A stretch of 64,000 bases of DNA from Trueperaceae bacterium (lineage in GTDB: Bacteria > Deinococcota > Deinococci > Deinococcales > Trueperaceae), in the NCBI GenBank assembly GCA_034520945.1, contig JAXHNB010000006.1, positions 648,180-712,179 on the forward strand, in the 5' to 3' direction. The translations under genes were made by a program, and so were the position numbers. Of the stretch, positions 324 to 62,392 are shown piece after piece. Below the pieces are notes generated by a model, which was given only the letters and a program-made list of their open reading frames with translations, had not been told where the DNA came from and ran no database searches. Within the stretch, counting starts at the first letter, position 1, and the number at the start of each line of letters is the position of its first letter.

Positions 324-412
324 GGAGGGTTGGCTGAGCGGTCGAAAGCGGCGGTCTTGAAAACCGTTGTGGGCATTCCCCACCGGGGGTTCGAATCCCT
401 CACCCTCCGCCA
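324..412 (+). tRNA. tRNA-Ser (anticodon TGA)
   Basis: Acceptor stem GGAGGGT/ACCCTCC, long variable arm, T-arm GGTTCGAATCC, anticodon loop CTTGAAA, encoded CCA. Confidence 0.9.
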
Positions 413-456
413 CCCGCTTCCCTCCGTAGGGGGTTCCGGTCGGCGACAGGCGGTCT

Positions 457-549
457 GGAGAGGTGGCCGAGCGGCTGAAGGCGCTCCCCTGCTAAGGGAG
501 TATAGGGGCAAAACCTCTATCGAGGGTTCGAATCCCTCCCTCTCCGCCA
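457..549 (+). tRNA. tRNA-Ser (anticodon GCT)
   Basis: Acceptor stem GGAGAGG/CCTCTCC, long variable arm, T-arm GGTTCGAATCC, anticodon loop CTGCTAA, encoded CCA. Confidence 0.9.
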
Positions 550-580
550 CGATAGGTCCGGTACGATGCCGGCAGCGCGT

Positions 581-657
<77 letters not shown>

Positions 658-35377: not shown

Positions 35378-35566
35378 TCAGTTCCGTCTGCCTTGCAATG
35401 TCTTCGCGATCCGCTCCATTCTCAGCAGGAGGCGGGTGGACGGCGCGACCTTGCCCGTGAGGTAGGTCGACGACCACGGTGCAAAGGTGGCGATCACGCC
35501 CTCGGTAGGCCAGCTGCCCACGGAATCCACGGGTTTCGCGTCGATGTTGCGGAATCGAAGGCTCAC
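35378..35566 (-). pseudogene. internally deleted copy of the HTH gene at 56362
   Basis: VSLRFRNIDAKPVDSVGSWPTEGVIATF // STYLTGKVAPSTRLLLRMERIA aligns with both ends of the 56362 protein. The middle is missing. Confidence 0.5.
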
Positions 35567-35700
35567 GGCTTCTCGCGCTCCTGCTCGAGCACGTGCTGGG
35601 CGATGGCCAGGCATTGGTCGGCCACCATGCGCCAAGCGTGCCAGCGGGGGTGGAGGCGCTTGTAGCGCGGCAGCTCCCGGGCGGTATCGGTATCGTCCGG
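35563..35700 (-). pseudogene. C-terminal remnant of a paralogue of the NTase-like gene at 56835
   Basis: My translation ...ELPRYKRLHPRWHAWRMVADQCLAIAQHVLEQEREKP* compares with ...ELERYKHLVPRWQTWSNVVAQCQQLAQTMLLAEDDTL*. GTGA overlap with the HTH remnant. Confidence 0.4.
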
Positions 35701-35987
35701 CTTTGGCTCCGCCGCCGGAGGCGAGGCTCGAGCTGGAAGTGGCGCGGAAGAAGGGGTCGGTGTTCGAGCCTGCGCACCCGCTGTGCGCGCCGACCGGTAC
35801 GTCCGGTTTCACGAGGGGCTCGAAGTGCTACTGGATGCGCCCGTAGAGTTCGTGTGGGGCGTCGTCGAATCTCACCTCAGCAACCTGCGACGAGAGGTGC
35901 GGACCCTTCTCGCGGAGGACCCTGAATAGCCCCAGTACGCACGGAACCCTTGCAGCGACTCGCTTCGAGGCGGCCGCTCGCGGGTCG

Positions 35988-36528
35988 TCAGCCCTGAAGC
36001 TCGACCGCCAATGCCAGCAGGCCACGCACGGTGCGCCAGTTGCGGGCCGTGACCTCGACGCCCAGCACACTCGGCACCCGCTGGGGGAGCTTGGATCGCC
36101 CCAGGCCGTTGGGCGCATGCACGTACGGGACGTTGCCGCGCAGCGCACACGGTTCGCCGTTGCTGCAGACCTCTTCCAGTGCGGCGAGGTTCGGTGCCTG
36201 CGGCAGGCTGGCGGGGAAGAACGCGTGCAGCGTCGTGGGCTTTCCCTCCGCCTCCGGGAAGGGGTTCGCGTCCGCGACGCGGTGCAGTTCGTCCGCCGAG
36301 AGAAGCGCCACGGCGGGTCGAAACGCCATGGTCGGCGGCGACCTTGTCCGCGAGGGTCTCCGCGAGACGGCTCGTAGCGTGCGGGGGCGCAGCGAATACG
36401 GCGTTGCCGCTCTGAAGGTAGGTTCGCACGCGCGTCGCGCCGAGGTCGCGAAGGGCGTGCGCGAATGCCGTCATAGGCAGGCGGTTGCGGCCGCCGACGT
36501 TGACTCCGCGAAGGAGCGCCACATGCAT
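35988..36528 (-). pseudogene. DUF1697-family protein, one frame break near 36330
   Basis: MHVALLRGVNVGGRNRLPMTAF...YLQSGNAVF is in frame 36528. The remainder (...TARNWRTVRGLL) is in frame 36329. Confidence 0.6.
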
Positions 36529-36629: not shown

Positions 36630-36863
36630 ATGGGAACCATGAACGTGTCCCTCCCCGAAACCCTGCGCGCGTACGTGGAAAAGCGGGTGCAGGACGAGGG
36701 CTACGCAAGCAGTAGCGAGTACGTGCGCGAGTTGATTCGCAGGGACCGCAGTCGCGAGCGGCTGCGCGCCATGATCATCGACGGCATCGAATCGGGCCCC
36801 GCACGGTCGCTGGACGACGCCTACTTCGACGATCTCGTGGCGTCGTTGGATGAATCGACCTGA
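36630..36863 (+). CDS. parD: ParD-type (RHH) antitoxin
   Basis: MGTMNVSLPETLRAYVEKRVQDEGYASSSEYVRELIRRD. Confidence 0.75.
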   Translation: MGTMNVSLPETLRAYVEKRVQDEGYASSSEYVRELIRRDRSRERLRAMIIDGIESGPARSLDDAYFDDLVASLDEST

Positions 36864-37180
36864 GGCGGAGATCCTGTGGCGTCCGCGAGCCATCGCGGAC
36901 GTGGAGCAGGCTGCGTGGAGCTATCGCGATATCAGGCGGAAGCGGTGTGGCGACGCGCTTCGTAGCCGAAGCTTCAGCGCGCCACCACAGCCATCCGGCA
37001 GGAGCCTTTTGCCGGGTCCCCGCGTCATGGGATCGAACTCGGGATGCCTGGCCTCAGGAGCTGGGTCCTAGACGAGTTCCCGCATCTCGTCTTCTACTTC
37101 TACCTGTCGGACCAGTCGACCGTGGAAATCGTCCGCGTGCTTCATGCTCGGCGTGACGTCCAGTCGCTCCTGGCGGAGTA
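36850..37180 (+). pseudogene. parE: ParE-type toxin, at least two frame breaks
   Basis: ILWRPRAIADVEQAAWSY (frame 1), ATRFVAEA..HPAGA (frame 2), FPHLVFYFYLSDQSTVEIVRVLHARRD (frame 3). Confidence 0.55.
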
Positions 37181-56361: not shown

Positions 56362-56838
56362 TCATGTCGTGTGTTCAACCTTGCCGGACAGACCGTACGC
56401 GCATGGTTCGAGCCCGGCCACGCGCTCCATGCGCACCATCAACGTCGAGGAGGGCGCCACCCGCCCGTTCAGGTAGGTGGACAGGCGCGAGGACGACGTT
56501 CCGACGCGTTCGGCGAATGCACGCCGGGATAGGCCCGACGCCACCAGCAGGGCGCGTACGCGGCGGGCGACCTCGGCCCGTTCGTCCGCTTCGGCCTCCG
56601 CCCGCGCCCGTGCCAAGGCCGTTGCCATCAGTTCGCTGACGCCGTAGGGATGGGTGGCGCGCAACGCGTCCTCGAGGCGCCGGGCCACGGGCCCCCACGG
56701 GTCGCGGCGCACCGCCGCGGCGACGCGACGCCAGTCCGAAAGCCCGCCGCGTTCCAAGGCGGCAATGACGGCCTCGGTCGGCCAGGTGTCCACCGGGTCG
56801 GACGGGCGTGCGTCCACATTGCGGAACCGCAGCGTCAT
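56362..56838 (-). CDS. HTH (XRE-like C-terminus) protein coupled to the upstream NTase-like gene
   Basis: MTLRFRNVDARPSDPVDTWPTEAVIAALERGGLSDWRR... and the C-terminal LSRRAFAERVGTSSSRLSTYLNGRVAPSSTLMVRMERV. ATGA overlap with the gene at 56835. Confidence 0.6.
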   Translation of the reverse strand: MTLRFRNVDARPSDPVDTWPTEAVIAALERGGLSDWRRVAAAVRRDPWGPVARRLEDALRATHPYGVSELMATALARARAEAEADERAEVARRVRALLVASGLSRRAFAERVGTSSSRLSTYLNGRVAPSSTLMVRMERVAGLEPCAYGLSGKVEHTT

Positions 56839-57530
56839 AACGTGTCGTCCTCCGCCAGGAGCATGGTCTGCGCCAGCTGCTGGCACTGCGCGACCACGTT
56901 GCTCCAGGTCTGCCATCGCGGTACGAGGTGCTTGTAGCGCTCCAGCTCCATGGGGGTCCTGGAATCGGCCGGTCGCGGGTCCGCGAGTTGGCGTGTCACC
57001 TGCGACGAGACGCCGTCCCCGTCCTCGTGCTGGTCCGTGTAGTAGGCGTCCAGCCGGATCAGTGCGCGTGCCGCCTCGAGCGTGCCCATGCGGTCGCTGA
57101 GAGCGGCAACGTCGATGAAGTCTCGGGTCTGATTCCTACGCACCAGCAGGTAGGCCTTGACGCGCAGCGTTTCGGCCAAGGTGGGCACGCGCACGGTGTT
57201 GCCCGAGGGAAGCGCCAGCTCGACCGTTTCCAGGGGGCGACGGCGACGCATCTGGCGGACGCCGGCCTCGATGTCCCCAAGTCGCCCCAGGATGATCTTG
57301 CTGGGTACGACACGGTTCGTGACCCACCCCTCCGTGTGTTCGATGGCCTCCAACACCATGTCGAAACGCTCCTTCAGGTCGGCCAGGACGTGGTCATGAT
57401 CGAACGAGTCCCGGTGACCGGCGTGCACGGCAGCCGCGGTACCACCGACCAGGACGGCGTCGGGCACCACCTGCTGGAGGCGAGCCGCCGATTCGAGGAC
57501 CTCGGCGAGTGAAGGTTCGTCCTCGGGCAC
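56835..57530 (-). CDS. AbiEii/DUF1814-like nucleotidyltransferase-fold protein
   Basis: AVLVGGTAAAVHAGHRDSFDHDHVL resembles the GG(T/S)A...R.S.D.D NTase signature. GTG start. Confidence 0.5.
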   Translation of the reverse strand: MPEDEPSLAEVLESAARLQQVVPDAVLVGGTAAAVHAGHRDSFDHDHVLADLKERFDMVLEAIEHTEGWVTNRVVPSKIILGRLGDIEAGVRQMRRRRPLETVELALPSGNTVRVPTLAETLRVKAYLLVRRNQTRDFIDVAALSDRMGTLEAARALIRLDAYYTDQHEDGDGVSSQVTRQLADPRPADSRTPMELERYKHLVPRWQTWSNVVAQCQQLAQTMLLAEDDTL

Positions 57531-57540
57531 GGAATGAGGT

Positions 57541-57554
57541 TATCATAAGTGATA
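57541..57554. promoter_or_regulatory. AT-rich palindrome TATCA-taag-TGATA
   Basis: A conspicuous AT-rich dyad 11 nt upstream of the NTase-like gene start, in the divergent region with the antitoxin gene at 57675. Confidence 0.35.
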
Positions 57555-57674: not shown

Positions 57675-57911
57675 ATGCCCAAATCGATCACCATCCGTGA
57701 TGTGCCCGACGACGTCAGCGAGGAACTCGCGGCGCGTGCTTCGCGATCGGGAACGTCGCTGCAGGCGTATCTTCGCGCTGAACTGATCGCGACGGCGCGT
57801 CGGCAGGAGCTCGATGTGGTGTTGGGCCGTGCCCGGGAGCGCGTGGAGCGGATGGGCAGCTCCCTACCTCGTGACACGATCCTGGGTCACATCGAGAAGG
57901 ATCGGCGCTGA
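57675..57911 (+). CDS. vapB: FitA/VapB-type RHH antitoxin
   Basis: MPKSITIRDVPDDVSEELAARASRSGTSLQAYLRAELI. Confidence 0.7.
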   Translation: MPKSITIRDVPDDVSEELAARASRSGTSLQAYLRAELIATARRQELDVVLGRARERVERMGSSLPRDTILGHIEKDRR

Positions 57912-58306
57912 GACGCGTAGTCGACGCCTCTGTGACAGTTGCTGCGCTGGTGGACAGCGGTAGCGACGGATCCTGGGCTGCTGAATCGCTCGCGGAGAGC
58001 GCGTTGATTGCGCCGCACCTCATGCCCGTCGAAGTTGCGAACGTATTGCGCCGGGCGCTTCGACGCGGTGAACTCGATTCGGCTTCGGCTGCCGACGCGT
58101 ACCAGGACTTGTTGACCCTTCCCGTCGCATTGCTGGCGTTCGGGCCGTTCGCCGAGCGCGTTTGGACGTTGAGGTCGACGCTCAGCGCATACGACGCCTG
58201 GTACGTCGCGATGGCTGAAGCATTGAACGTCGAGCTGCTCACCTTGGACGAGCGCATCCGGAGGGCCCCAGGTGTCCGCTGTGACGTGCTTAGCCCGGGG
58301 CATTGA
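57908..58306 (+). CDS. vapC: PIN-domain toxin VapC (start codon unresolved)
   Basis: The conserved opening RRVVDASV lies upstream of the track start (GTG 57932). The only in-frame option is CTG 57908, which overlaps the antitoxin stop. Confidence 0.65.
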   Translation: MRRVVDASVTVAALVDSGSDGSWAAESLAESALIAPHLMPVEVANVLRRALRRGELDSASAADAYQDLLTLPVALLAFGPFAERVWTLRSTLSAYDAWYVAMAEALNVELLTLDERIRRAPGVRCDVLSPGH

Positions 58307-58375: not shown

Positions 58376-58858
58376 TCAGCCCTCCGCCGCGCGAATGGGC
58401 CAAGCCACGTCGCACGCGGGATCGTCGGGGTTCGCGGCGCTCCAGTCGGTGACGTACACCTCGCGCGGGGCGCCGCTGGAGGTCGCGCCGGTGCGCGTCA
58501 GGTACTCCTCCAGCGCCTGGTACGCCTCGAGGATGCCGGGGTAGGCCACCTGCGCCTTGGTGAGGCGAACGTACGCCTCTTGCGCGGCGGGTTCGACCCG
58601 TACTCGGACGTCGTCTTCGCCCTCGAGCGTCCCGTCGATCGGCACGCACACCTCGACGGGCCCGTCGGCCTCGGCGTCTACCGGTCCGTAGTACGCCACG
58701 AACGGTGCGCCGGCCGGGGATAGGCCCGCGACGCTCAGGACGTCCAACAGCCGGTGCAGGTGGGTTTGGATGAAGTCGGGCAGCGCTTCGGCGGTGGTGT
58801 GCCCCTCGATCGTGGCGACCGTGCGTTCCGGGACGTGGCGGGTGTGAACTTCGTTCAT
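58376..58858 (-). CDS. GyrI-like small-molecule-binding protein
   Basis: MNEVHTRHVPERTVATIEGHTT...GAPFVAYYGPV...EVCVPI...REVY. Confidence 0.7.
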   Translation of the reverse strand: MNEVHTRHVPERTVATIEGHTTAEALPDFIQTHLHRLLDVLSVAGLSPAGAPFVAYYGPVDAEADGPVEVCVPIDGTLEGEDDVRVRVEPAAQEAYVRLTKAQVAYPGILEAYQALEEYLTRTGATSSGAPREVYVTDWSAANPDDPACDVAWPIRAAEG

Positions 58859-59353: not shown

Positions 59354-62300
59354 TCACGCCACGTCGGGCGGGTCGTCCGGGGCGGCATCTTGGCCGACCC
59401 ACGCGACGGCGTCCAGCACGCTACTCCGAGTACCCTCCTGCCACGCTGCCCTGAATCGGGCCGGGGCGAGCTGCGACCGCGTGGCCTCCACGTCACGGGT
59501 GTGGACCTCGCCCTCCTCGCCGGTACGGACCAGGCCGTACCGCTCCAGGACGGCCGTTTCGACGCCCCACAGCCGCGCTGCGACCTCGGGGCGTTCCTCC
59601 AAGGTGGCCAAGCTGGCCAGCGCCCACAACGAATCGACGGTGCGCCCCTCCTCGCCGAGGGCCACCCAGCGTTGGACCGTTTCCAGGAATGCGCGCCTTG
59701 CCTCGTCCAGCTTGCCGCGCTTGCGGGCCACCAGCCCCAGGTCGAAGGTAACGTCGGCCACCCCGCGGGCATCCCCCATGTCGAGGTACATCTGCAGCGC
59801 CTCGTGGTAGCTTCGCTCCGCGCCAAGCAAGTCGTTTCGTTCCTGCATCACCCCCGCCAGCATGTGGAGGGCGGTCGCGACGCCCCACCTGTCGCCGATC
59901 TCGCCGTCTCGTTCCAACGCCTGCTCCATGTGGCTCCGGGCGGCGTCCAGATCGCCCAACTGCCACGCTACGAGCCCCAGGTTGTGGTGGCTGGTGGCGA
60001 TGCTCGTCGCTGCCTCGTCTCGGTGCCCGCTGTCGAGGACACGCCCGTAGTGCGCCCGTGCCTCGTCGAAGTCGCCACGCAGGCGCGCGACCTCGCCCAG
60101 GCCCGTGAGCGCCCCACGCTCCCCGTTGATGTCGCCTCGTTGGCGTGCCCGTGAAAGGGTTTCGCTGAAGTACGCCTCGGCCTCGTCCAAGCGGCGCTGC
60201 TCGATGGCGACGTTGCCGAGCGTCTGGACGGCACGCAGCTCGGCCTCGTCGTCGCTGACGGAAGCCGCGGCGGCGCGGGCCGCCTGCAGGTCATCGCGGG
60301 CCGCCTCGTGATCGCCGAGGCGATAGGCCATGGCGCCCGCCACGTGCAGTGCTCGCGACCGCCCATGCTCCGCGCGACCGTCCGCGGAAGCAAGCCCCGC
60401 CAGGGCTTGGGTGCGGCCCTCCGCGAAGCGGCCGCTGAAGCGCCAGCGATGCCACTGTGCGTCCACCAGGTCGAGGGCGAGCTGCGGGTCGTGTTCCCGG
60501 CCGTACGCTCCCGCTGCGGTGAGGTTGGCCGCCTCGAGGTCGAACCACCTCTGCGCCTCGTGCTGACGGGGCCCGTAGTACGCCGCGCTCCACGCGCGGG
60601 CACGATTCAGGAAATGCGCCGCGTGGCGCGCGGCCAACGCCGCGGCGAGGTCCTCCTCTTCTTCGAGTCGCTCGACGGCGTAGGTCCGTACCAGCGGGTG
60701 TACGGCGAAGCGCCCATCGTCCCACCTCGAAATGAGCGAGGCGCCGATCAGTGCCTCCAACGTGTCCGCGTCAGCGCCGGCGACGTCATGGGCCGAAGCC
60801 GCGTCGAAGCCGCCGTGGAACACCGCCAGCCGACGCAAGGCCTCGCGCTGCGTCTCCGACAACCGTGTCCAGGAGGCGTCGAAGCTGGCCCGCAGGGTGA
60901 GGTGCCGCTCAGGCCGGTTTCGCGACGTGGCGGCGAGCGCATCCATCGACGCCTTCAGCGATGCCTCCGCGTCGACGGCCGAGCCGTCCCGCAACAGGAA
61001 CGCTGCCAGCTCGATGCCCAAGGGCACGCCGTCCACCAACCGGCACATCCTGGCGATCGCTTTGCGCTCTAGCGCGTCCGGCGCGTAATCCAGGCGCACA
61101 CGCTTGGCGCGGTCCAGGAACAGGTGGACCGCATCACCGTCGGTGTCCGGCTTCGAATCGTCTTGGGGCACCGGCAGGCCCTCAAGCGGGAACACCGACT
61201 CCTCCTCCAGGTCCAGGCGGACGCGCGAGGTCGCCACGATCCGGGCGGCCGGGCAGCACGCCAGGAGGCGTGCCAGGGTGGGGGCGTCCTCCACCAGGTC
61301 GTCGACGTTGTCGAGAACCCACAGGACGCGTCGCTGGCCCACCGTGCGAGCAAGGGCGTCCTCGTCCGTTTCGTGTGGCGCGGGAACGACCCCCATGGCG
61401 TTGGCCACGGCGGCCGCTACGGCGGCGCCGTCGCTCACGTCCTCCAGCGAGACGAAGTGCACCCCGGCCTCGAAGGTGCCGCGACTGGCCACGTCGTGTG
61501 CGAGGGCCAGGGCGAGGCGGGTCTTGCCGACCCCTCCGAGGCCAAGCAGCGTGAGAAGGGGATGGTCGTCGCGCGCCAAGATGCGGCCCAGTTCCAGTCG
61601 TTCCACGTCGCGCCCCACGAACGAGGTGGGTGCGCGCGGCAGGATCACCGGAGTCCGCGCGGCCCGTAGCGACGCCCGTGCGCGGGCGCGGCCGGGTACC
61701 AACTCCAAGCCGAACTCGGCGGCCTCGTCGCGCACGCTTCGGGCCTCGTCGGAATCGCCGGCCACGAGCACGGCGTGCAGGCGCTCCAGCAGCTCGGGCG
61801 GGGCCGGCGGTGCCCCGGCGATCCGGCGGGCGCGTTCGGCCAGGCCAACACCGTTGCGGTAGCGGCCAGCTGCTGCCTCACCTTCGGCCCCGTCGACCAC
61901 CAGCGTGCGAATCCGCCCGGCCAACCCTTCGCGGCGTTGCAAGATCCAGGACTCCAGCTCGGTGCCCAGTGGGGGAAGGCCGCTCCCGTCGAGGAATGCA
62001 CCTTCGTAGCGCGCCAGGACCTCCTCGTGGTCGCATCGCGCCAAGGCTTCCTCCACGAGCGCCACGTCCGTTTGCAGCCGACTCCGAAGGGTAGCGCCTT
62101 CGGCATGGACGGCGTCCGGTGCGGCAGCCCGCACGCGGCGGAGGGTCACCGCGAGGCGATTGAGGGGGTTCGTCGCGTCGGGCCAGAACAGCCGAGACAG
62201 GCGCTCGCGCGGTTGCGGTCCCTCGAGCGCCAGGTACGACAGAAGCAGGAGAGGCTTGTAGCGACGGAAGTCGCTGCCTTCCAGCGCCAGGTCGCCGAGC

Positions 62301-62392
62301 ATTCGAAGGATCACACGTTGAAGGGTACCAAGCATGCGCCCCAGAACGCGCGCCTGGCGGGATCCAACGTCTTTGCCGCTTCCGTTGGACAT
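59354..62392 (-). CDS. SARP (wHTH + BTAD) - NB-ARC ATPase - TPR regulator (AfsR-like STAND protein)
   Basis: 1012 aa, intact. BTAD EEVLARYEGAFLDG, Walker A GLGGVGKTRLA, Walker B VLWVLDNVDD, then about 10 TPR-like repeats. Confidence 0.85.
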   Translation of the reverse strand: MSNGSGKDVGSRQARVLGRMLGTLQRVILRMLGDLALEGSDFRRYKPLLLLSYLALEGPQPRERLSRLFWPDATNPLNRLAVTLRRVRAAAPDAVHAEGATLRSRLQTDVALVEEALARCDHEEVLARYEGAFLDGSGLPPLGTELESWILQRREGLAGRIRTLVVDGAEGEAAAGRYRNGVGLAERARRIAGAPPAPPELLERLHAVLVAGDSDEARSVRDEAAEFGLELVPGRARARASLRAARTPVILPRAPTSFVGRDVERLELGRILARDDHPLLTLLGLGGVGKTRLALALAHDVASRGTFEAGVHFVSLEDVSDGAAVAAAVANAMGVVPAPHETDEDALARTVGQRRVLWVLDNVDDLVEDAPTLARLLACCPAARIVATSRVRLDLEEESVFPLEGLPVPQDDSKPDTDGDAVHLFLDRAKRVRLDYAPDALERKAIARMCRLVDGVPLGIELAAFLLRDGSAVDAEASLKASMDALAATSRNRPERHLTLRASFDASWTRLSETQREALRRLAVFHGGFDAASAHDVAGADADTLEALIGASLISRWDDGRFAVHPLVRTYAVERLEEEEDLAAALAARHAAHFLNRARAWSAAYYGPRQHEAQRWFDLEAANLTAAGAYGREHDPQLALDLVDAQWHRWRFSGRFAEGRTQALAGLASADGRAEHGRSRALHVAGAMAYRLGDHEAARDDLQAARAAAASVSDDEAELRAVQTLGNVAIEQRRLDEAEAYFSETLSRARQRGDINGERGALTGLGEVARLRGDFDEARAHYGRVLDSGHRDEAATSIATSHHNLGLVAWQLGDLDAARSHMEQALERDGEIGDRWGVATALHMLAGVMQERNDLLGAERSYHEALQMYLDMGDARGVADVTFDLGLVARKRGKLDEARRAFLETVQRWVALGEEGRTVDSLWALASLATLEERPEVAARLWGVETAVLERYGLVRTGEEGEVHTRDVEATRSQLAPARFRAAWQEGTRSSVLDAVAWVGQDAAPDDPPDVA

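Follow-up and report, generated by a model that had tools for sequence, protein, structure and literature searches.

The DNA analyzed here, a 64,000-nt (64-kb) stretch of a Trueperaceae bacterium contig (JAXHNB010000006.1, positions 648,180 to 712,179), is referred to below as the window, and its numbering is used for all coordinates. On its minus strand it carries two overlapping genes whose function is the question raised by this locus. The first encodes a protein resembling the AbiEii-type nucleotidyltransferases (NTases), and the second a partner with a helix-turn-helix (HTH) domain of the XRE type. NTases of the DUF1814 family such as AbiEii and MenT are actively studied, both for tRNA 3′-end modification and for auto-phosphorylation induced by the antitoxin, and to our knowledge all described DUF1814 pairs have the regulator first and AbiEi-like or MenA partners. 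What, then, is a pair in which the NTase comes first and the partner is of another kind? On its sequence features, the module is most likely a toxin-first toxin-antitoxin (TA) or abortive-infection operon, self-contained and horizontally spread, a reading to which we assign a probability of about 60%. The features concerned were as follows.

56835..57530, minus strand: NTase gene from the list of open reading frames (ORFs), 231 aa, GTG start; proposed toxin
56362..56838, minus strand: partner gene, 158 aa, with an N-terminal domain (N-domain) and a C-terminal XRE HTH; proposed antitoxin and autorepressor
56835..56838, minus strand: ATGA stop/start overlap (NTase TGA, partner ATG), read from the sequence
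56848..56853, minus strand: partner Shine-Dalgarno sequence GGAGGA, 9 nt ahead of the ATG and still within the 3′-terminal part of the NTase gene
57541..57554, minus strand: palindrome TATCA-taag-TGATA (TATCA-N4-TGATA, 14 bp); proposed operator for the XRE-HTH partner
57537..57545, minus strand: extended -10-like element TGATAACCT (TGnTAnnnT), which shares bases with the dyad's right arm; the GTG start is 6 nt on
35405..35712, minus strand: decayed second copy of the module, found by tblastn (ORF 35378-35812)

The two-gene unit and its upstream palindrome

The 4-nt ATGA overlap reported in the initial annotation was confirmed at 56835-56838, and it couples the NTase and partner genes. Homologues of the partner begin with M-x-LRFRN; the start giving 158 aa is therefore correct, and an alternative 184-aa reading of the ORF found no support. 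Related loci were compared in a close sample of the 80 best and a distant sample of four. The partner lay directly downstream of the NTase gene, on the same strand, in 77 of the 80, so that the reversed order first seen in the window (NTase first, DNA-binding partner second) is shared by nearly all of them. The three loci lacking a downstream partner comprised two contig ends and L057, the only locus with room for a partner and yet without one; its NTase is split into two ORFs, and the HTH ORF downstream is unrelated. The 80 loci came from Trueperaceae, Deinococcaceae, many Actinomycetota, a Limnocylindrales metagenome-assembled genome (MAG) and a Wenzhouxiangella MAG, and the NTase-then-partner order was found in Deinococcota, Actinomycetota, Chloroflexota and Gammaproteobacteria. 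At the junction, a 4-nt overlap (ATGA or GTGA) occurred in 37 of the 77 loci, the rest ranging from -20 to +5 nt, and 60 of the 77 had a GGAG/GAGG core at -18 to -4 relative to the partner start.

An AT-rich dyad had been described 11 nt upstream of the pair. The dyad is present at 57541-57554, and only its spacing required correction, the distance to the GTG being 10 nt. TATCA-N4-TGATA has no other match in the window even when one mismatch is allowed (0.06 expected). Exact copies were found in 59 of the 80 loci, each immediately before the NTase gene and one per locus, except in a Deinococcaceae MAG (L026, 3933-3976), where two copies 30 nt apart precede the NTase gene. When the loci were aligned on the dyad with the window included (n = 81), 60 were exact, 18 had one mismatch and 1 had two. 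The consensus across the aligned loci was tTATCAgATnTGATAnnnT, followed by 7 nt and then TG. In this layout, the right arm TGATA supplies the "TGn" and the "TA" of an extended -10 element (TGnTAnnnT). An ATG or GTG was located 8 to 14 nt past the dyad in 52 of the 59 loci, 39 of which had it at a distance of exactly 10 nt (background, 0.19); a Shine-Dalgarno core between the dyad and the NTase start was seen in only 2. The window has precisely the modal spacing, TGATA-ACCTCATTCC-GTG. Judged by these alignments, the palindrome is a family-wide element, maintained across phyla, and the strongest new result of the analysis.

A scan for sigma-70 -35/-10 promoters, which needs a -35, and a terminator scan gave no match; the extended -10 promoter, without a -35, is proposed on the basis of conservation. 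The position of the dyad over the extended -10-like element, with the start codon 10 nt downstream, suggests a leaderless and self-repressed operon. Among Actinomycetota and Deinococcota, mRNAs without a leader are frequent. Among the relatives, the recognition helix of the partner was invariant at G113 T114 S115 x x R118 x S120 T121 Y122, as were the half-sites of the palindrome, and the HTH protein may well bind this palindrome.

With the same partner downstream in 77 of the 80 loci and the exact dyad upstream in 59, the arrangement is far beyond chance, and we regard the module as almost certainly a widespread, fixed, conserved and autoregulated two-gene unit. The pairwise identities of NTase and partner co-vary (r = 0.79, a value that none of 999 permutations reached). 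No third conserved gene was found in the flanks of the related loci, which vary. NTase identity between Deinococcota and Actinomycetota was 60 to 72%, suggesting horizontal spread. The description of the pair as a mobile two-gene module fits these data together with the occurrence of a few relatives on plasmids, and the survey of public genomes that had been proposed beforehand as a check showed, for the loci sampled, that the pair is kept together. Repeats that might mark a mobile element, whether direct or inverted, amounted to short chance matches only between 55.9 and 58.7 kb. Of the NTase family, more than 5,200 clusters at 90% identity were scored, and 1,481 clusters at 50% identity were matched at an E value of ≤1e-3; among 185,579 genomes, one representing each species, at least 524 carried a relative, which is a patchy distribution.

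The decayed second copy that had been noticed at 35.4-35.7 kb is real, with remnants of both genes and a GTGA junction between them. By tblastn, the C-terminal 47 aa of the NTase were identified at 35712-35572 (47% identity) and the N-terminal 28 aa of the partner at 35566-35483 (61% identity). The partner gene has then lost about 90 internal codons, and its C-terminal 22 aa lie at 35470-35405 (68% identity). The second copy is divergent, independently acquired and decaying, and is not a recent duplicate.

The two encoded proteins

The 231-aa product (ORF 57530-56835), which contains VGGTAAAVHAGHRDSFDHDH, had been likened to the AbiEii/DUF1814 NTases, and the resemblance held up in profile searches and motif comparisons. 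Pfam family PF08843 (AbiEii) matched residues 86-182 only, with 24.0 bits (E value of 4.2e-5), a small margin over the gathering threshold of 22.5 bits. The assignment is more secure for the family as a whole: PF08843 was also matched at an E value of ≤0.01 by 63 of 79 close relatives, and distant relatives were colinear with nearly the full model at E values of about 1e-7, namely, P0286 over positions 6-231, P0385 over 10-175 and a relative on a P. putida plasmid over 13-213. The PADLOC AbiEii profile matched the window protein with an E value of 0.008, and a scan of NCBIfam gave no family match.

Motifs I to IV of DUF1814 have been defined by Dy et al. (2014; PMC3985639), motifs I and II being the pol-beta NTase signature hG[GS]-x(9-15)-DhD. 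In the window protein, motifs I and II are V28-G29-G30-T31, followed after 12 residues by D44-H45-D46; motif III is K125-A-Y-L-L-V-R-R132 (K-x6-R, its Lys lying among hydrophobic residues); and motif IV, which is C-terminal and specific to the family, is R136-D137-F-I-D140. The key residues are thus G29-G30-T31, S42, D44, D46, K125, R132, R136, D137 and D140. In an alignment of 41 sequences from the wider family (35 to 59% identity), these positions were kept, the first as G29-G30-[ST], together with R40. G29, G30, S42, D44, D46 and K125 were each at least 90% conserved, and R132, R136, D137 and D140 were invariant. S42, two residues before the DxD, was also invariant in the 79 close relatives.

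In MenT1, residues T39-D41-D43 and K137/D149/D152 have been defined experimentally (PMC11375011). The spacings of S42-D44-D46 and of K125/D137/D140 in the window protein are identical to these, with Lys-to-Asp distances of 12 and 15, and the match between S42 and T39 makes S42 a candidate auto-phosphorylation site. In AbiEii, T65, likewise two residues before the DxD, is auto-phosphorylated (bioRxiv 10.64898/2026.01.19.700257). Judged by position, S42 is the equivalent of MenT1 T39, MenT3 S78 and AbiEii T65.

The exact 231-aa protein has been deposited as "hypothetical protein U5K81_11820" from a Trueperaceae MAG. A 62%-identical relative on a Pseudonocardia plasmid is labeled "nucleotidyl transferase AbiEii/AbiGii toxin family protein" by the Prokaryotic Genome Annotation Pipeline, and the next gene at that locus "helix-turn-helix domain-containing protein." We consider the first protein very probably a distant member of the DUF1814/AbiEii NTase superfamily.

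The partner was found to have the two domains attributed to it, a conserved LRFRN...WPTE N-domain and a C-terminal XRE-like HTH, as judged by Pfam, the alignment of relatives and an AlphaFold2 (AF2) model. The HTH occupies residues ~90-145 (HTH_3, E value of 3.3e-8; HTH_31, E value of 1.2e-7) and is joined by a long helix to the strongly conserved, helical N-domain of residues 1-85. Within the N-domain, F5, R6, P15, V16, W19, E22, E29-R30-G31, W36, P47, W48 and G66 were invariant, in the overall pattern LRFRN...WPTE...ERG..DW...DPWGP...PYG. The AF2 model of the 158-aa protein was confident (predicted local distance difference test [pLDDT] score of 89.7), and in Foldseek only the HTH was matched, by ClgR, C.AhdI, lambda cI and P22 c2 at root mean square deviations of 1.4 to 2 Å. 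There were also weak HigA and MqsA profile matches to the HTH. The N-domain had no match in Pfam, NCBIfam, PADLOC or a profile search of the PDB, MenA1 included. No HEPN family was detected in the partner with Pfam or NCBIfam, the PADLOC CARF_HEPN match was not significant (E value of 0.018), and no other toxin signature was found.

Function of the pair and competing explanations

A toxin role for the NTase and an antitoxin role for the partner are probable to the same degree as the TA reading as a whole. Under this reading, transcription would start from the extended -10 promoter (TGATAACCT) and yield a leaderless mRNA beginning at the NTase GTG, and the partner would be translated from its own Shine-Dalgarno site through the ATGA overlap. 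By analogy with MenT and AbiEii, the NTase would add nucleotides to tRNA 3′ ends and so halt translation. The N-domain of the partner would bind the NTase and neutralize it by sequestration, by induced auto-phosphorylation of S42 or by both, while a dimer of its XRE HTH would bind TATCA-N4-TGATA over the -10, occluding it and silencing the operon. Were the partner lost, the NTase would be released. Despite the reversed gene order, the antitoxin could be kept in excess, since its translation would be coupled and driven by a Shine-Dalgarno sequence and that of the toxin would be leaderless. The tRNA target and the control by auto-phosphorylation, which are drawn from analogy, are the more tentative parts of this scheme and rather less likely than not.

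Several observations are consistent with the proposed roles. The sole partnerless locus with room for a partner, L057, has a broken NTase, and both genes have decayed in the second copy within the window. A sister family in Proteobacteria has a 75-aa protein, similar to the N-domain, in the usual antitoxin position before the NTase, and in Deferribacter a partner consisting of the N-domain only follows the NTase. Within the window, the palindrome occurs only at the promoter of the module itself.

The module was then compared with known systems. According to Dy et al. (2014; PMC3985639), the regulator gene comes before the NTase gene in both known types of DUF1814 pair. The AbiE systems (AbiEi-AbiEii of Lactococcus and Streptococcus agalactiae) share with the module a toxin or candidate toxin in PF08843/DUF1814 with motifs I to IV, a bicistronic overlapping operon, a DNA-binding partner, inverted repeats at the promoter that suggest autorepression, and a Ser or Thr two residues before the DxD (S42 here, T65 in AbiEii). 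They differ in gene order; in their COG5340 partner, which has an N-terminal winged HTH and a C-terminal domain rather than a novel N-domain and a C-terminal XRE HTH; and in having two 23-bp repeats (PMC3985639) rather than a single 14-bp palindrome. The NTase of the window is also shorter, at 231 aa, and its sequence similarity to AbiEii is marginal.

A similar picture emerged for the MenAT systems of M. tuberculosis (MenA1-MenT1, MenA3-MenT3 and MenA4-MenT4), which also have a DUF1814 NTase and in which MenT1 shows the same spacing of phospho-acceptor, DxD, Lys and D-x-x-D. MenT partners are known to be structurally diverse, and we know of no MenA type with an XRE HTH. In contrast to the window, MenA genes precede MenT genes, and no MenT or MenA chain in the PDB was matched by sequence profile. 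The module departs from the AbiE and MenAT definitions (COG5340-COG2253 and COG4861-COG4849) in two defining features, gene order and antitoxin type (COG5340/COG4861), while sharing the sequence features of the toxin family, and it is therefore not an AbiE system. Closer in layout are the reverse-order type II systems HigBA and MqsRA, where the toxin gene also comes first and a palindrome presumably serves the downstream XRE-HTH antitoxin as the site of operon repression. However, the first protein of the window matches PF08843 only and is an NTase rather than an RNase of the RelE or MqsR fold, and the presumed neutralizing domain of the partner lies N-terminal to the HTH and is unrelated. Full-text literature searches found no description of an NTase-first arrangement of an AbiEii-like protein with an XRE partner.

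Some results weigh against the TA reading. The AF2 model of the NTase had a mean pLDDT of 75, with residues 44-91 below 50 and a poor catalytic half, and a Foldseek search of the PDB with this model gave no match at an E value of ≤0.001; the best matches, DUF1814-type NTases of low significance, were 5uvd (NTase-like, probability 0.80), MenT1 (8an5, 0.44) and MenT4, an outcome that leaves an NTase fold neither established nor contradicted. When the PDB was searched by sequence and profile, the queries being the NTase, two profiles of its family and a distant relative, the result was chance matches only, none to MenT or AbiEii. D44, or a G of the GG motif, is missing from some members of the family, and conservation of the candidate third carboxylate, E88, does not extend to the wider family. 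For a TA pair, an identity of 60 to 72% between phyla is unusually high. The homology of the N-domain to stand-alone partners of related NTases is moderate only (E values of 4e-4 to 0.02, probability of ≤34%). Relatives are rare on plasmids, being carried by eight plasmid records. Phage genomes gave no match to the NTase, no PHROG was found for it, and a single relative was present among 2.9 million viral contigs; on these grounds, an explanation of the module as prophage cargo was rejected.

The alternative that best survives, although we consider it unlikely, is a non-toxic regulatory switch in which an NTase-like sensor, modifier or pseudo-enzyme nucleotidylylates the XRE repressor, or only binds it, and so controls its attachment to DNA, comparable to the modification of HepT by MntA or to anti-repressor/repressor pairs. 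Invariant Ser, Thr and Tyr residues in or near the partner HTH would offer possible modification sites, and such a switch would accord with the losses of D44 and the GG motif in some members, even though the catalytic motifs otherwise match those of toxins of proven activity. The very high conservation across phyla suggests constraint on several surfaces rather than an arms race, and the lack of phage association points the same way. A regulator would sit less well with a palindrome found solely before the module itself, which leaves no obvious regulon, with a module that occurs in unrelated contexts and decays as a unit, as selfish modules do, and with the broken NTase of the one partnerless locus.

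A second alternative reverses the roles, with the NTase as the antitoxin, like MNT of the MNT-HEPN systems, and the N-domain of the partner as the toxin; this we regard as highly improbable. In MNT-HEPN systems the MNT antitoxin gene comes first. The MntA-HepT pair does resemble the module in having an NTase-fold gene followed by one for a small helical partner, and the N-domain has no match to any family of known function. Yet the MntA-type NTase belongs to the minimal MNT family, which the window NTase does not match; the latter falls in PF08843/DUF1814, whose studied members are toxins. HepT is a HEPN RNase without a DNA-binding domain, whereas neither a HEPN nor another toxin signature was seen in the partner, which carries a DNA-binding, presumably autorepressing domain of a kind typical of antitoxins. 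The small partner of the proteobacterial sister family, encoded first and overlapping the NTase gene, is likewise antitoxin-like. The least probable explanation, a housekeeping or resistance NTase (e.g., an antibiotic-modifying enzyme) with a dedicated repressor, would suit an operon that is self-repressed in design, and NTase-plus-repressor operons are in general known for resistance genes, but Pfam and NCBIfam scans linked the protein neither to ANT/Lnu nor to any other family of resistance NTases, the distribution among species genomes is patchy, a decayed copy lies within the window, and enzyme/repressor pairs do not typically show translational coupling or co-variation with a partner-binding domain.

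Distant relatives of the pair and its surroundings

The N-domain-like proteins that bear on the TA reading were found in two arrangements. On the Deferribacter plasmid pDF308 (L082, 2920-4159), a 299-aa AbiEii-like NTase, 33% identical to that of the window, is followed by a 112-aa protein without an HTH (FTYRNID...ERG...), which aligned to the partner N-domain with an hhalign E value of 0.007. This pair adjoins a CRISPR-cas locus on the megaplasmid. On P. putida pKF715A (L081, 2802-3726) and on Thiothrix chromosomes (L084-L087), a 75-aa protein gene precedes and overlaps the gene for a 236-aa AbiEii-like NTase that is 46% identical to the window NTase. In profile-profile comparison with hhalign, the 75-aa protein (...ISRGRWRDW...PY...) matched the N-domain with an E value of 4e-4 and a probability of 34%. 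These sister pairs, a family likewise uncharacterized, are like the module in the NTase, in the small partner and in the overlap of the genes, and unlike it in that the partner gene leads and its product lacks an HTH. The 75-aa proteins form a highly conserved family of at least 1,387 clusters, all annotated as hypothetical and without a Pfam family. The Thiothrix pair sits inside a nif gene cluster, and an ISL3 transposase gene is located just downstream of the pair on pKF715A.

If the homology of the N-domain holds, this domain would be the ancestral NTase partner, which the subfamily of the window moved downstream and fused to an HTH. A broader proposal, which we consider doubtful, is that the N-domain is a new NTase-controlling domain, occurring also as a stand-alone protein before or after related NTases, and that it defines a large unrecognized branch of DUF1814 with a mechanism unlike that of AbiEi or MenA. 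If so, that branch would hold at least 1,481 clusters at 50% identity, and the mechanism could be, for example, that the invariant N-terminal peptide fills the active site or that the NTase nucleotidylylates the repressor and thereby switches the operon.

Among the distant NTases, P0311 has a second, DUF6036-like NTase domain N-terminal to the module-type NTase domain, and P0290 is extended at both termini, perhaps by fused neighbors. A similarity of the P0290 C terminus to the partner N-domain was rejected as not significant (E value of 0.056), and the apparent NTase-partner fusions P0304 and P0289 were rejected as frameshifted reads.

The module shows a large, cross-phylum branch of DUF1814 with reversed gene order and an unrelated, uncharacterized partner domain fused to an XRE HTH. 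In most genomes the pair is annotated as hypothetical or only generically. The finding is not categorically new; it is a large uncharacterized branch of a topical toxin family. Its cis-element, a 14-bp palindrome set in an extended -10 and separated by a constant 10 nt from the presumably leaderless start, is unusually well defined, and the system could reveal whether control by auto-phosphorylation extends to unrelated antitoxins.

The pair had been described as lying in a TA-rich patch, and other TA genes are indeed present in the window. A VapB/VapC pair at 57675-58306 on the plus strand, consisting of a FitA-like ribbon-helix-helix VapB (PF22513) and a PIN-domain VapC (PF01850), is divergent from the NTase operon and shares with it an intergenic region of 144 nt. 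Over the pair and this VapBC neighbor, the GC content was 0.65 to 0.68 versus 0.70 to 0.74 in the flanks, a mild dip only. Near the decayed copy, a ParD-like antitoxin gene (PF03693) is located at 36630-36863 on the plus strand; the 73-aa ORF that follows it (the two together spanning 36630-37071) has a ParE-like beginning and no Pfam match and is probably a decayed toxin gene. On the minus strand at 35872-36528, a DUF1697 gene appears to be split between frames, with ORF 35872-36528 holding its N-terminal part and ORF 35988-36329 its C-terminal part. This gene, which adjoins the NTase/partner remnant, is probably a pseudogene. The stretch around the decayed copy looks like a graveyard of accessory genes.

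An Rfam scan of the window detected only three tRNA genes, which stand in a row at its start (324-654, plus strand), far from the pair. On the other side of the VapBC pair, a 1012-aa STAND-type regulator with an NB-ARC/AAA domain and many TPR repeats (MalT/AfsR-like) is encoded at 59354-62392 on the minus strand, and it is adjoined at 58379-58798, also on the minus strand, by a weak GyrI-like match (21.3 bits versus a cutoff of 26).

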